Shown here: positions 9,001 to 15,000 of the stretch, piece after piece
Position numbering within the stretch: position 1 is the stretch's first letter
How the letters are laid out: each line of letters starts with the position of its first letter
Origin: Pseudomonadota bacterium
GTDB lineage: Bacteria; Desulfobacterota; Desulfobacteria; Desulfobacterales; RPRI01
DNA length: 64,000 bases
Reading direction: 5' to 3'
Assembly: GCA_043825875.1 (NCBI GenBank)
Contig: JBDRRF010000041.1
Coordinates: forward strand, 1-64,000
Program-made: the position numbers

Positions 9001-12000
9001 TTATATAAGTTAATTTGTTTTGGTATTTTTTGGAATAAACAATCCGTTATCTCATTTTATTATTTTACTATTTGAAAAGGATTGAATATGACCGGATATA
9101 CAAAAAGCCCCAATCTTCAGATAATTGAAGCACGGGGCTTTTGTTTTTTTAAATATTGTGAACTATCAAAACTTGGAAGCACAAACTTGTGGTGCCAAGT
9201 TTGCACTTTAAGTTTACGGGGCACGGAATATATGTCTATATCGGAAATCGGAATGCTCATTACTTTTTAAATATAACATTTATTTGTGGCATTTTTAATT
9301 TATTATACATTAAGTTATTTGAGAAAGTATAAAAGTAAAGGGCGTTATCCCGGCACACATAGCAAATAGAATTGTGATTGAATATTATTCACACAGTGAT
9401 ATATATTCAATCACAATAAACCTTTTAGAGTCTCAAAAATGAAGTAGCTTATGCAATTAGAATCAGACCGCCATCTATTCCAATAAATTGTCCGTTTAGG
9501 TATGATGCACCTTCACTAGCCATAAAAGCTAATATTTGTGAGCAATCTTCATAAGCCTTACCAAAATGCCCGACTGGTATCTCGCTTTCTATTCGACTTG
9601 CAGCGTCCCGCCCCTGTGGGGTCATATCATAAGCTTCTGTTCTTACAATGGGCAAGCATGCATTTGTTACAATACCAAACCCACCCCATTCTTTAGCTGC
9701 GTTCCGTGTAAGTGCCATGATGGCTCCTTTTGCCATTTCATATGCAGCAAAACCTGGTGCCCCTACCAGGCATGAATGTGAAGAAGTATTAATAATACGC
9801 CCATATCCCTGCTTCTTCATATAGGGGTAGCACTTTTGCATAAATAACATAGTTTGTAATGGTCCTGTGACAAAGGCTTCGAGCGCACCTTTTGGTGTGA
9901 CACCGGTCAGATAAGTCATATCTTGCAATGCACCCTGAGCTATATTGGCAAGAACATCAACGGTTCCAAATTCTTTAATAGTTGTATTAACGACATTATC
10001 GATGTCTTCTTCATTTACCACGTCGCAAGTAACGGATATGGCGGTACCTCCTTTTGCGGCAATTTCTTTAACAAGAGCCTCCAGTTTTTCCGTACGGCGT
10101 GCAGTTATCACAAGTTTAGCTCCCTCTTCAGCAAATCGAACTGCACAGCCCCTGCCTACTCCTGAGCTTGCTCCTGTCACAATAGCAATTCTTCCTTCAA
10201 GAATACCCATCTGAATCCTCCTGATAGTCATACATCATAGTAATTGGATTTCGACTATGCATACATTGCTTCATAAGCTCACATAAGCAGTGAAGCAAGC
10301 CCATCTCAACGCCCCGGATCGCTGAGAAGATGACCAAAGCGCTTACGATATTGTGGAAATTGTTGCATAATGGCAACAGAATCAAACCCGAAATCCTCTG
10401 CATTGTAATGGTGGCTGCCATGTTTTGATTTTGGATTCTCGGCAATATATTGTTCTATACGGCGTATATGTTCGGCACTGAAGGGTAAATCAAAATGCTG
10501 ATGAATGCGGCGAACCTGGCCAACCGGGTCGAGTACCGTGTCACGATAAGGAATGTCAAGCACTCGCGCATCGAGTTTTGGATCACGCGCACGTGCTGCC
10601 GTACTACGCTCAAGACATGCTCCAAACAAATGTGCTGCCAGTTGGCCAATCTCCTTCCGCTTCGCACGCGGATCATTCATATGAAATATAGTCCAGATAA
10701 AATTCGAACCAGAGGGAATCGTCCGTACCGGATCACGATGTGTCTGAACGAAACACGCGTCCGGATACGTTGCGGCCAGCTGATCGAGATTAAGCTGATG
10801 CATCGGTTCTTTCAAAGTCCAACGGCCACGAGGACCTTTCCACTGCAATTGTTGCAGCACTCGCTTATGCGTGCGATAGAGACCCTCAATCGGGGTATCG
10901 GCCAGCCAGTGTACGAAACGAGGTACACCATAAAATGAGAATAATCGTGCGCTGGCAAAATGCAGAGCCATTAAATAGAGACAATCCGCCGGCATAGTGG
11001 CGCCGAATGGATGTATTTTCTTTAATTCCGGCAAGGCCGCAAACATGCCTTCGAGTTGTGCCTGCATTTGAGCAATTCTGGGATCGGTGTCGAATGTAGC
11101 AGCCTCAGGCGCAGGCCATGGCCTTGCGGTTTCCCATACAAGAGGTGCACGGGCAGCCGGGTCGAGAGCCATAAGATCATGCAGAATCGTTGTACCGGTT
11201 CGGGACAATCCGATAAGAATAATCGGGCGTTTGATTTTGATTGCAAGTATTTCAGGATACCGGCGCTCATCATCCACAAGCCTGAGTCTGGTAATCAATA
11301 GATCAATCATGTGCTCTGTAAAGCGTTCAACCAATTTAGGCAAAGGATCGGTCTCGCACAGGGCCTCGACAAGAACCGTAAGGCCTATACGAAATGTTTG
11401 GTCAGACCCCCAATCTGAAAGACCGGAGCGATGTTCTGCTTCATGTATAAGTGTAGTAACGCTAAGTTCCATGGATTTCATCTCCTCTACCCGGATAGTT
11501 CACACATGCCGTAGCCGACCTCATTGTCCCATTCAAAGATAGAACATGACTGGCTCATCAAGACTTCGCAATCAACAACAAGTCCATGAAAGTCTAAAGA
11601 AATGCTCTTAGTCTTTTCGCCAGGCTTGCCTTCGTTCCAGGTCCCAACAGGAATCCACGTTGTCTTGACATTTCTGCCCTTAATGTGCGCTGTTCCAAGA
11701 GCGCTCTTCAATATAACCGTATAAGGCGGTAATTTCGGAACACGATCAAGCTCCGGCACCTGGAGAACTTCTGCGCGATGGACCTGTTTATTTTCGAAAA
11801 TATATGCTTCGCTAAAATAAGGAATATTGCGCTCCTTATTGAGAACTTTCAGACCGAATCCTCTGCCACTCGGAAAAAACCCGCAGACCCAGGCATGGCT
11901 TTTCATGCCGGTCATGTCGCGTGGACCCCGTACATGTGCCCGCAATCCGACACCCTCAAAGTTCCACGACTCGGTCGCAACCTTAATCTGACCGACTGCT

Positions 12001-15000
12001 TTTACCAGTTGTTCGTATTTTCCGAGAAAGTCGCTCTGTGTCTCCACTGCCGCAGATTGATTGCCAGGCCCTGTGCTCAAAGGGATAATCCATGGCTCAC
12101 CTTGTGTTGTTGCCCGGATGTCGACATCGACATGGGTTGTGGGCCCTTCGCAAACCAGGCCGCGCGCCTGCTGTTCTTCGGTTGTAACAAGTGCCTTGCC
12201 GGTCCAGCGATAACGCCAGGATCTAAAAGGTTTTTCGCAATGCAAGCTAAGATTTGTTCCGCCCGGCTCGTTGCCCTTTGTAAATGTACCTTCGGATTGT
12301 GTTATCAAAATTCGTCCATCGGGTAGAAACAAGCTGGCACGTTCACAAGCCCTGCCCGCCGTAATGCCATGGAGATGAAGGTTTATTCCAATATCTTTCG
12401 GGCCGTCATAAAACCAATTATTAAATGTCTCAACCAGGTTGGGTATGTGCGATGCCGTCGTCAGCGCATAATCAAATTCTTGACGGAGACCACCGTTAAA
12501 ATTGTCCATAAGCTTTCTCTCCAGACCTTGCAAGCAAGGTGTTCCCACGAGCCTATATATCAGGTATTTTGTGACGTGATAAAAACTTGCTTTTAAAATT
12601 TAATTAAAAAGCTTAAAATAAGATATAGTACTATTTATATATTTTATATCATTTGCTAACAATAAAATAAGGATTAAGCAAATTTTCCTTGTTGAAATAC
12701 AAATTCTAATTCATGTTTTGCATATCCTGCTTCTTAAGTATTTTATCAGATATAAAATACTGCCGGTTAATATTAGCAGCACTACTAATGCGCCTAAAAT
12801 CCATTTAAACGATGAAAAGATACTAGTTATTAATGCCACATTTGGATTAAAATCAGGTAAGCTTGAAATCATAAAAAAAACCCCGATATTTTCAAAATAA
12901 TCACAAAAGGCCGCAGCAAAAGGAAGTATTATAATCCCCTTAATCCTGCTATCGGGAGATACAATTCTTTTAAACAAAGCTGATATTATAAGAGTAAAAG
13001 ATATGGCTGAAATTAGTGGGTAAATTGAATCTAATATGAAAAAATAATGCAAATAAAGTCGAAGGCCTTCACTTGATGTTGTCGTTAACCATTTTCGTGC
13101 GTATTCAACATTATATCCTATGATAGCATCAGGTAGAGTTAGTCCATTAGAATTTAGTTTAAGACGGGGTATAACATCTAACATAATTATAGTACTAAGT
13201 ATTAATGTGAAAAATAACATAACCGAAATTATTTTCCAGACGGCATTTTTTTCAATCAATTGGAAAATACTATTATTTCTCATAAACTCACCATCACTCT
13301 ATGGGTTCAAAACCTTTCTTTTCCACTTTTTTTGTAATTCGGAAAATACTTGCAAATGATTGATTTCAGAAGCAGGACAAACATTGCTACAGGTTCCGCA
13401 CATAATACACTCAACCAAACTGTTCCGAACCGGCAAGGGACTCAGGTTTGGGCAAGAAGTTATTAGTTTCCACAGTCGGTAGAGATAAAGCTATAATACG
13501 AAGAGATATCAACTATTATCCTGTTTTTCGGCATGTGATTTAAAAGAGTTTAAGCGCAACTTTTTAAAGTCAAGTTTTATACAGTCCGGAATCTTTAAGC
13601 CACAAAAAAGTATAACCTTCAATATTATCATTTATTTTCATTTTCACAAATGATTCGAAGCTTTCCCTTTTTGGTATTTTTACTTCAACAGAATCAAAGT
13701 GCTCCGGTATAGGATATTTGCCATATGCATTAACTGCGGCAATAAACGCATGCACATGTTCAGGGGGGGTATCAGCATTTATATTGTTTAAAAAAAGAAT
13801 GAATTTCCCGCCGGAAGCCCCCGCCTTGATATATCTTTTAACACGTGCGATTATCTCGCTGACCGGTCCTTTTTCTAATAGAGATGCATCAAAGCCTATT
13901 TGCAAAGGTATACTGTGTTTGTCTGAAACATTTTTAAAAAACTCAGGTCCTATAATATTGACATCAGGATCCAATGCCAACAAGCATGTATTCATTGTCA
14001 TCTTTAAGCGAGCTTCGACAAGATCCATCGGATTTTTAAGATATGTATCTCCCCAGTTACCTGCCGACATTGCAATAAAGCCGGGTATTTTCAAATTATC
14101 ATTTAAATATTGAACATAAGGTACAACAAAATTATTCATAATCTTCATATTTATAAGAGGTATGCTGGCCCAGGCATCCGCCAGTATTACATTTTGTGCT
14201 TCGGGAAACTGATTCTTAAGGTCTCTTATATATGGAATCATGAGGTTGTCACAAATGCTTCTTAGCATCTCATGAACGAATTTAGGATCTGATGCAATGG
14301 AAGCAATCAGATTTTCGTATCCATAGATATTGCAGGCAGTACAAAAGGGGGAAGAAGCAACCAAACCCGTTCTTGGTAATCCGGTATAATCTTTAGCAAG
14401 TTTGTAGCTATCTACTAATTTGCTGAAACGCCCTGCATACAGTCCGTTAAACCTGATCTTATCGATATCGTTTTTATCTTGAATAACATAATCAGAGCGA
14501 TCTATATCCGGAATATGGTTTGGGAAATATTTTATTTTTTGTCCGATGGATTCAGGTTCAATGTTGTAGACATCCCATTGAGGTTCAGCTACAGTAATGC
14601 CATAGTATTCTGTTAGAAGCAAACTTATCTCGATAAGTGTAAGTGGATTTGTAAATACCTTATCAAAACTTATCTTGGCCATTTTACAGACATGTCCCGG
14701 AAACTGGGCTGAAACCGGAACCTTTATCGGGGTATCAGTAAAAGCTGCACCTAATATACGAATGCTGTCATACCAATAACTCATTAGAGACCTCTATTAG
14801 TTTGGTATTATTAAGGATATGGTGAATTTATATTATTCTTCCGATATTATATCCTTCATATATCGCATCAATCGCCTTACGGGGTGCCGCACAATCTCCA
14901 ACCGCGTATAACTCTTTTACTTTATCTTTCAAAGCATAATAGAGTTGATTATCGGCCCGGTTGCCCATTACCGAAACCACTGTATCTACATTTTCTATTT

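Follow-up and report, generated by a model that had tools for sequence, protein, structure and literature searches.

The window analysed here is the first 64,000 nucleotides of contig JBDRRF010000041.1 from a Pseudomonadota bacterium, and three genes that an earlier note had described were recovered as minus-strand open reading frames at 11487-12509 (g01179, hereafter g79; 340 aa), 10306-11481 (g01178, hereafter ST; 391 aa) and 9449-10231 (g01177, hereafter SDR; 260 aa). g79 starts with an ATG at 12509 that has GGAGAG 7 nt 5' of it, and close homologues have the same start methionine. The upstream leader of the g79-ST unit (12510-12608, minus strand) is conserved with close kin in blastn blocks, and it probably carries the promoter and the ribosome-binding site. 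A gap of 14 nt had been given between g79 and ST; this distance holds from the g79 stop to the second ST ATG at 11472, which yields a protein of 388 aa, but the first ST ATG is only 5 nt away. The SDR, a classical short-chain dehydrogenase/reductase (Pfam adh_short_C2, E 8.7e-48), lies 74 nt downstream of ST. Downstream of the SDR is a terminator-like hairpin (9107-9131, minus strand; a T run after a 9-pair stem), found only by a consensus scan that returned six sites against 4.3 expected, and it could conceivably mark the end of the operon.

The assignment of ST as an Stf-like sulfotransferase was borne out, as the protein matched Pfam Sulfotransfer_3 at E 7.7e-35 (121.5 bits; the curated cut-off is 27). 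The mycobacterial Stf sulfotransferases 2zq5 (E 6.7e-46) and 2z6v (E 9e-43) belong to this same family and match ST over its full length; ST residues 14-375 are covered, the nucleotide-binding loop RTGTT aligns with RTGTT of 2zq5, and R94, G96 and T97 are invariant across 14 relatives. A source of PAPS is present in the genome of g79 as an APS kinase (C76:217220-217669; 218.9 bits), which lies away from the pair and is 67% identical to the APS kinase directly upstream of the pair at a related locus, L001. PAPS-supply genes of their own are often present in ST-linked clusters, with CysD and CysN by the pair in L003, and CysQ, CysN/C and CysD by the pair in Sphingomonas immobilis and on an S. 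paeninsulae plasmid.

Searches with g79 returned no family in Pfam, as previously reported, or in NCBIfam at E<=1, and the DUF7065 and DUF7064 models matched neither g79 nor its own clade at that threshold. The earlier figure of 24 relatives was obtained again with a word-indexed search, but the tool itself capped it: when HMMER was run exhaustively (phmmer with g79 alone as query), it gave 394 clusters at E<=1e-3, falling to 180 at the stricter cut-off of E<=1e-10. DUF7065 (PF23213), DUF7064 (PF23212) or both were present in 18 of 20 g79 relatives scanned (25-35% identity; E<=0.1), and also on ESM Atlas neighbours of g79; Pfam assigns this family no function, and a literature search found no paper naming it. 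Furthermore, a profile of 50 family sequences with g79 included (A2) matched 25-PSL, which together with the kinase 25-HSK serves anaerobic cholesterol side-chain degradation in Sterolibacterium denitrificans, at E 1.5e-13 (9fzn) and 6.7e-13 (9g4c), and matched AttH more weakly (E 2e-4), whereas a narrower profile (A1) matched no PDB chain. The predicted fold agreed with the one first described: a g79 model from 24 rows (pLDDT 86.8, pTM 0.88) gave 25-PSL entries as the best five Foldseek hits (E 4e-12 to 4e-11, TMq 0.60-0.62), ahead of AttH 2ich, and VIA also matched g79 to both proteins. The AttH-type two-barrel fold spans the whole length of g79. Taken together, these comparisons indicate that g79 is a true but divergent DUF7065/DUF7064 family member despite the lack of a direct Pfam or NCBIfam match, and that its kinship with 25-PSL, formerly a case of fold only, now rests on a sequence profile as well.

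The g79 family and 25-PSL have in common an R-x-[H/R]-x-x-G-x-R strand and a C-terminal G-Y-G-x-x-E, which align in the A2 match, and a conserved Gln, although 25-PSL is only about 12% identical to g79. The strand reads R190-A191-H192-V193-R194-G195-P196-R197 in g79, which retains all of the family-wide core residues (E27, Q167, R190, H192, G195, R197, H205, G334 and E337); the majority residue at each of these positions (g79 numbering; 192 = H/R) is found in 118 to 144 of 150 other family sequences. In contrast, Ser-Trp of 25-PSL is replaced by Val-Arg in g79, which also has E234 and E330 in place of Gly/Ser and Arg/Lys. The pocket of 25-PSL holds phosphate in entry 9g2i, and its strand, RDRSWGVR, reads RNRSWGVR in 9g4c, where Asp was changed to Asn by the depositors; this deposited variant points to a catalytic role for the Asp. 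That residue, Asp176, aligns with Ala191 of g79, and the Asp of AttH (in L-D-R-E-W) aligns with the same family position. The central-strand acidic residue of AttH/CrtC-type hydratases is thus replaced by Ala191 in g79, and the Asp changed in 9g4c is absent from every ST-linked member. Position 191 is Gly, Ala, Ser, Thr, Ile or Val throughout the clade of g79, never Asp (Gly 17, Ala 5 and Ser 2 in 24 close relatives). Because the Asp is absent from g79 and its whole clade, g79 cannot simply copy the 25-PSL mechanism, and should the superfamily rely on this Asp as its catalytic acid/base, g79 would lack that group and might not be a lyase. Its absence counts as a real objection to reading g79 as a sulfate-ester lyase.

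An ST lies directly downstream of a g79 relative, on the same strand, at 6 of 10 genome loci that hold such a relative, reproducing the original count, and directly upstream at a seventh (L010). Two loci that had been listed separately as Acidobacteriaceae (L003) and Acetobacteraceae (L004) share 98.7-100% identity across about 12 kb and were counted once. Blastn blocks extend over window positions 12608-10304 in L001 (90.7% identity) and 12593-10301 in L002 (82.9% identity), and the DNA common to the window and these two loci is exactly g79 and ST, with a GC content of 0.49 versus 0.39 for the genome. The SDR does follow the pair in the window, as described earlier, but it is absent from this common DNA, and SDRs of other subfamilies flank ST in L003-L005, L062 and L094-L098; it is a local addition, possibly a ketoreductase that makes the alcohol. 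The two genes co-diverge, with g79/ST identities of 90/93, 83/88, 50/57, 51/56 and 31/35%. These data indicate that g79 and ST move together as a mobile, horizontally acquired two-gene unit. Among Sphingomonadales, a family member was found in 6 of 301 genomes, all six of which fall among the 68 of 401 with an Stf-like ST, and only 1 of 30 Stf-type ST loci had a family member within 1.5 kb.

Partners were surveyed for 68 distinct family members sorted by Asp at position 191 (g79 numbering), with home-made ST and APH profiles that were checked against Pfam on part of the loci. Among the 31 Asp-less members, an Stf-type ST was found within 600 nt in 13 (12 on the same strand; both gene orders) and within 12 kb in 20, and an adjacent APH kinase in none; the other 11 had no ST in the flanks read, and among these L112 has an APH kinase at a distance of 5.8 kb. 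Of the 37 Asp-bearing members, nine had a same-strand APH-type kinase within 600 nt and three more had one within 2 kb, and no ST was present in the flanks read. The tree places the Asp/partner contrast on one split (support 99/97), so it represents one evolutionary event and the counts across members are not independent. The genome of g79 also encodes an Asp-bearing, kinase-linked paralogue, clustered with two FAD oxidoreductases and a sigma-54 activator; it sits elsewhere in the genome, and the neighbour of g79 is the sulfotransferase, with no APH homologue beside it. An extract of PMC8449060 describes 25-HSK, which partners 25-PSL, as a 'phosphotransferase family' protein. The pairing of Asp-bearing members with APH-type kinases supports a parallel to the logic of 25-HSK and 25-PSL. 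A hydroxyl-activating transferase is paired with this fold in both systems; however, the partner is a PAPS sulfotransferase for g79 and an APH-type kinase for 25-PSL, and the g79 and ST genes are adjacent, whereas the same extract places no lyase gene near 25-HSK in Sterolibacterium (PMC8449060).

The best explanation, to which we give a probability of roughly 45%, is that the pair forms a mobile 'activate and cleave' unit, in which the sulfotransferase would activate an alcohol and g79 would then split its C-O bond, releasing sulfate. It builds on the observed fold, family membership, linkage, motif switch and PAPS-supply genes. The surroundings of the pair in Sphingomonas also have a catabolic look, with TetR, a P450cam-like P450 (6e-77), an MFS protein, a GMC oxidoreductase, a lactonase and a TonB receptor as neighbours. 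The alcohol could in this window be made from a ketone by the downstream SDR. ST would then use PAPS to sulfate a hydroxyl on a hydrophobic, probably isoprenoid- or terpenoid-like, substrate; the basic strand of g79 (R190, H192, R194 and R197) would bind the resulting sulfate ester, and g79 would subsequently cleave at the C-O bond, expelling sulfate. An alkene would be the most likely product, with substitution or cyclisation after ionisation as alternatives, and alkene-forming elimination is only one among several possible outcomes of sulfate departure. The 'activate and eliminate' module proposed in the earlier note is strengthened by profile kinship, the partner rule, the PAPS genes and the kinase-linked paralogue, and weakened by the missing Asp, the local nature of the SDR, the low frequency among STs and the single tree event.

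A precedent for such chemistry is found in the KR-ST-TE units of polyketide synthases, which sulfate a hydroxyl to eliminate it, as set out in the excerpted text of PMC6274090. In these chain-release units (CurM of curacin A, olefin synthase and HlaB), a ketoreductase produces the hydroxyl, a PAPS sulfotransferase acts on it and sulfate exit leaves a C=C bond (PMC6274090, excerpt). The SDR-ST-g79 order in the window mirrors KR-ST-TE, but the likeness is in logic only: the eliminating partner there is a thioesterase, coupled to decarboxylation, whereas g79 has a different fold, and the KR-ST-TE parts all belong to a single synthase, as domains that work on a carrier-bound acid, whereas the window proteins are free-standing. 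The scanned neighbours of the pair included no thioesterase, carrier protein or synthase.

It is unlikely, but consistent with the lost superfamily Asp, the lipocalin-like two-barrel fold and the tight 5 or 14 nt spacing, which suggests translational coupling, that g79 is a non-catalytic binding or carrier pseudo-enzyme that holds a greasy substrate for ST, or that shields or passes on the sulfated product. E27, Q167, H192, R197, H205 and E337 are nevertheless invariant in both the Asp-bearing and the Asp-less clades, E234 was gained in the Asp-less clade, and some clusters hold several diverged g79-family paralogues, which is more typical of enzymes. A 'phase I / II / III' detoxification, in which a P450 or SDR makes the alcohol, ST sulfates it for MFS export and g79 carries out some unrelated reaction on the same scaffold (as isomerase, cyclase or pericyclase), appears similarly improbable. 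The TetR, P450 and MFS genes that adjoin the pair in Sphingomonas favour detoxification, as does the fact that Stf-type STs with SDRs and without g79 are common. Yet the unit in close kin is g79 and ST without P450 or MFS, and detoxification leaves unexplained both the change in the 25-PSL-motif strand that is unique to the ST-linked clade and the parallel kinase pairing.

The mycobacterial Stf enzymes yield stable sulfated lipids, sulfomenaquinone among them, and are not known to supply a lyase. The pair could make a sulfolipid or a sulfated terpenoid as its end product, with g79 as a hydratase before ST that supplies the alcohol in the manner of CrtC or kievitone hydratase; we regard this as quite improbable, although g79 precedes ST in most pairs and PAPS-supply genes would suit a sulfation pathway of any kind. 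A hydratase would require an acid, yet the Asp aligned in AttH and 25-PSL is absent from g79, and a neutral alkene substrate leaves the extra basic residues unexplained. AttH, kievitone hydratase and the fungal decalin-forming Diels-Alderases (CghA, Fsa2 and Phm7), of which only AttH was detectable by sequence, act on neutral substrates and have no activating partner gene. The gene order is moreover reversed in L010, L118 and L123, and the kinase-linked relatives act after the activating enzyme, according to the extract of PMC8449060. Finally, that the adjacency is functionally meaningless and two unrelated genes are carried together is very improbable even though most Stf-type STs have no such neighbour, as the 13 adjacent pairs span three sub-clades, both gene orders and several bacterial orders, g79 and ST co-diverge down to 31/35% identity, and the mobile block of close kin contains no other gene.

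Within the 'activate and cleave' reading, g79 may represent a hitherto undescribed class of sulfate-ester C-O lyase, a PAPS-driven counterpart of ATP-driven 'phosphorylate and eliminate' dehydration; with it bacteria would strip unreactive hydroxyls from terpenoid- or steroid-like compounds, and its sequence mark would be loss of the central Asp with a gain of basic residues in the R-x-[H/R]-x-x-G-x-R strand. This wider claim is more doubtful and is put forward tentatively. Bacterial sulfation is usually read as making a finished sulfated product and, to our knowledge, sulfate as a leaving group is at present known only from domains in a few polyketide synthases. If the proposal is true, free-standing enzymes of breakdown pathways would also employ sulfation to create a leaving group, a function would be assigned to some members of a several-hundred-cluster family that so far lacks one, and a sequence rule would separate users of sulfate esters from users of phosphate esters among those clusters. 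It would also account for the presence of dedicated PAPS synthesis and PAP recycling genes inside some catabolic-looking clusters, and would provide enzymes for the mild dehydration of unreactive alcohols. Altogether, these data suggest that sulfate, like phosphate, may serve bacteria as a removable handle for taking hydroxyls off greasy molecules.

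The 340-aa protein g79 (11487-12509, minus strand), the adjoining sulfotransferase (ST; 10306-11481, minus) and a short-chain dehydrogenase (SDR; 9449-10231, minus) form a head-to-tail trio on the minus strand, with a weak terminator-like hairpin beyond the SDR at 9131-9107 (minus). The g79 start at 12509 is preceded 7 nt upstream by GGAGAG, and the same Met opens its close homologues. The 14-nt gap between g79 and the ST reported in the earlier note holds for the second ATG of the ST, but the first lies only 5 nt from the g79 stop; the ST and the SDR are separated by 74 nt. Rfam searches at gathering score returned no match anywhere in the window. 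The ST matched Sulfotransfer_3 of Pfam (7.7e-35) and PDB entries 2zq5 (6.7e-46) and 2z6v (9e-43), with the RTGTT loop aligned, and by sequence it is clearly an Stf-type enzyme. Elsewhere in the window, a URO-D-fold protein (13570-14784, minus; URO-D, 7.6e-21) with weak likeness to MtaA/CmuA methyltransferases adjoins a two-domain old-yellow-enzyme/FadH-type oxidoreductase (14828-16792, minus), which scored 729.8 bits against the 'mycofactocin system FadH/OYE 2' model, under its cut-off of 793. An 885-aa protein (4898-7555, plus) matched no curated family and combines a glutamine-amidotransferase-like part with a GXGXG domain of the kind known from glutamate synthase and formylmethanofuran dehydrogenase subunit C.

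No match to g79 was found in Pfam and NCBIfam at E<=1; however, DUF7065 and/or DUF7064 of Pfam were matched by 18 of 20 scanned relatives of 25-35% identity, and both also appear among the ESM Atlas neighbours of g79. A literature search found neither DUF named in a paper. As had been reported, the structural model of g79 is confident (pLDDT 86.8, pTM 0.88), and the five top Foldseek matches are entries for the 25-phosphosteroid lyase (25-PSL), followed by AttH. A narrow family profile detected no PDB chain at E<=10, whereas a broad profile of 50 family sequences, g79 included, reached 25-PSL at E 1.5e-13 and AttH at 2e-4. In the broad alignment, the 25-PSL strand R-D-R-S-W-G-V-R corresponds to R-A-H-V-R-G-P-R in g79, and the C-terminal G-E-V-G-Y-G-M-M-E of 25-PSL pairs with the same motif. 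Together, the profile match and the aligned motifs indicate that g79 is, at the level of sequence, a real though divergent homologue of 25-PSL. The two deposited 25-PSL sequences differ in this strand at a single residue, which is Asp in 9fzn and is replaced by Asn in 9g4c, and from this difference the Asp is taken to be important in the depositors' view. The count of 24 relatives given previously was reproduced in a word-indexed search, but it does not describe the size of the family: exhaustive HMMER searching returned 394 clusters at E<=1e-3, and the family is mid-sized, not tiny.

Partners were scored for 68 distinct members with flanking DNA, out of roughly 400 family clusters. These came from the set of 10 genome loci, a plasmid record, 401 sampled genomes from the phylum of the window, every copy in three alphaproteobacterial genomes and a 301-genome Sphingomonadales sample; for each member, the residue aligned with the 25-PSL Asp (Asp176; position 191 in g79) and the nearest ST or APH-type kinase were recorded. 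Among the phylum-sample ORFs, 80 of 245 (those of L042-L050) were Pfam-scanned, and the calls for L051-L061 relied solely on tblastn and custom-built profiles. Among the 31 members with Gly, Ala, Ser, Thr, Ile or Val at position 191, an ST lay within 600 nt in 13 and within 12 kb in 20, and an APH kinase within 600 nt or 2 kb in none; the 37 members with Asp showed the reverse, with an APH kinase within 600 nt in nine and within 2 kb in 12, and no ST in the flanks read (0/37 at both 600 nt and 12 kb), although counts across members are not independent trials. At L112, an APH kinase lies 5.8 kb from an Asp-less member. The ST is on the same strand in 12 of 13 ST-adjacent members, with both gene orders seen, and the kinase in all nine kinase-adjacent members. 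PMC8449060 describes 25-HSK, the kinase that supplies the substrate of 25-PSL, as a 'phosphotransferase family' protein. Further changes accompany loss of the Asp, namely Ser-Trp to Val-Arg or Arg-Thr, position 234 to Glu, and Arg/Lys at 330 to Glu. In a maximum-likelihood tree of 39 members, a single branch (support 99/97) separates every ST-linked row from every kinase-linked one; the partner rule therefore reflects one ancient switch, and the linkage has since been kept in several sub-clades and gene orders. Asp-bearing members of one lineage in the phylum sample (L042, L044-L047) lie beside DUF2889 and a phosphotriesterase-family protein, with acyl-CoA dehydrogenases also flanking at L042 and L045, and this setting is a third recurrent context of the family.

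The reported placement of an ST directly downstream of a g79 relative in six of 10 genome loci was recovered, and at a seventh the ST lies directly upstream. The Acidobacteriaceae and Acetobacteraceae loci (L003 and L004) had been listed separately and carry the labels of different phyla, but they are the same DNA (98.7-100% identity); they are bog MAG contigs with about 12 kb in common and a DDE transposase nearby, and their sameness stems either from transfer in the very recent past or from double binning of a single contig family. Seen from the ST, the linkage is limited. Stf-type STs are common in Sphingomonadales (68/401 genomes at E<=1e-30), and a family member lies within 1.5 kb of only one of the 30 best ST loci there; the neighbours of these STs are instead SDRs, luciferase-like monooxygenases, SnoaL proteins, KstD-like flavoproteins and P450s. 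Few Sphingomonadales genomes carry the family at all (6/301 genomes at E<=1e-40), and all six genomes are also ST-positive. At five Sphingomonadales loci (L094-L098), an Stf-type ST beside an SDR recurs in clusters that also hold the other proteins just listed, a carboxyl methyltransferase and MFS pumps, an APH kinase is present at L094, and none has a g79-like neighbour.

The block common to the two close-kin loci spans 12608-10304 (90.7% and 82.9% identity) and contains exactly g79, the ST and a leader of about 100 nt. An SDR follows the pair in the window, as had been stated, but it lies outside this block. The GC content of g79 and the ST is 0.49, against 0.39 for the genome and 0.27-0.31 for the flanking spacers. 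Family members at E<=1e-10 occur in 24 of 401 phylum-sample genomes, and apart from g79 itself (4e-110) none approaches it (best 1e-48), and beyond the two close kin the closest relatives are alphaproteobacterial. Horizontal acquisition is the most likely origin of the two-gene unit. A membrane protein of 190 aa that belongs to no family (12711-13283, minus) adjoins the pair, likewise in the closest relative (L001:6565-7920, 93% DNA identity), where 653 nt with an APS kinase gene, versus 79 nt in the window, separate it from g79.

In the proposed mechanism that has most support, an alcohol would be formed, perhaps by the SDR; the ST would place sulfate on it; and g79 would hold the ester by its basic strand while the C-O bond is cut, with sulfate as leaving group. 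We give g79 as a sulfate-ester C-O lyase a probability of 0.45, and an alkene as the specific product somewhat less. A switch from a protonatable phosphate ester to a fully ionised sulfate would agree with the lost Asp and the gained Arg; the missing Asp equally permits a different chemistry, and it equally allows a role as a binding or carrier protein, which we rank below the lyase. A hydratase is also ranked lower. The KR-ST-TE units of polyketide synthases (PMC6274090) are a precedent for the logic proposed for the ST and g79; a literature search on dehydration that depends on sulfation, or on lyases of sulfate esters, returned nothing relevant.

In the closest relative, the APS kinase gene lies directly upstream of the g79 homologue; none stands at the corresponding place in the window, and the genome's own APS kinase, 67% identical, is on another contig. 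In S. immobilis and on an 850-kb S. paeninsulae plasmid, the gene order is TetR, P450, MFS, GMC oxidoreductase, lactonase, g79 homologue, ST and SDR, followed by CysQ, CysN/C and CysD, with more Asp-less paralogues and a TonB receptor nearby. The P450 most resembles P450cam and other CYP101 enzymes (6e-77), which hints at small terpenoid-like substrates. A Caulobacteraceae MAG (that holding L006) carries 12 family copies and S. immobilis six, an expansion that families of catabolic enzymes typically show. That a catabolic-looking cluster brings along its own PAPS synthesis and PAP recycling is more readily understood with sulfation as an activation step whose product is consumed, but it is no proof of such a role. 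The window's own genome encodes a second, Asp-bearing member on contig C89 (14831-15820), in a cluster (6331-15820) of raised GC (0.44-0.57) with an APH-family kinase (12089-13153, 2.2e-25), two phytoene-dehydrogenase-type FAD oxidoreductases, a sigma-54 activator, and 330-aa and 93-aa proteins of no family. The cluster resembles one of the 'phosphorylate and eliminate' kind, here in a genome like that of a sulfate reducer, and the genome carries both types of family member, ST-linked and kinase-linked.
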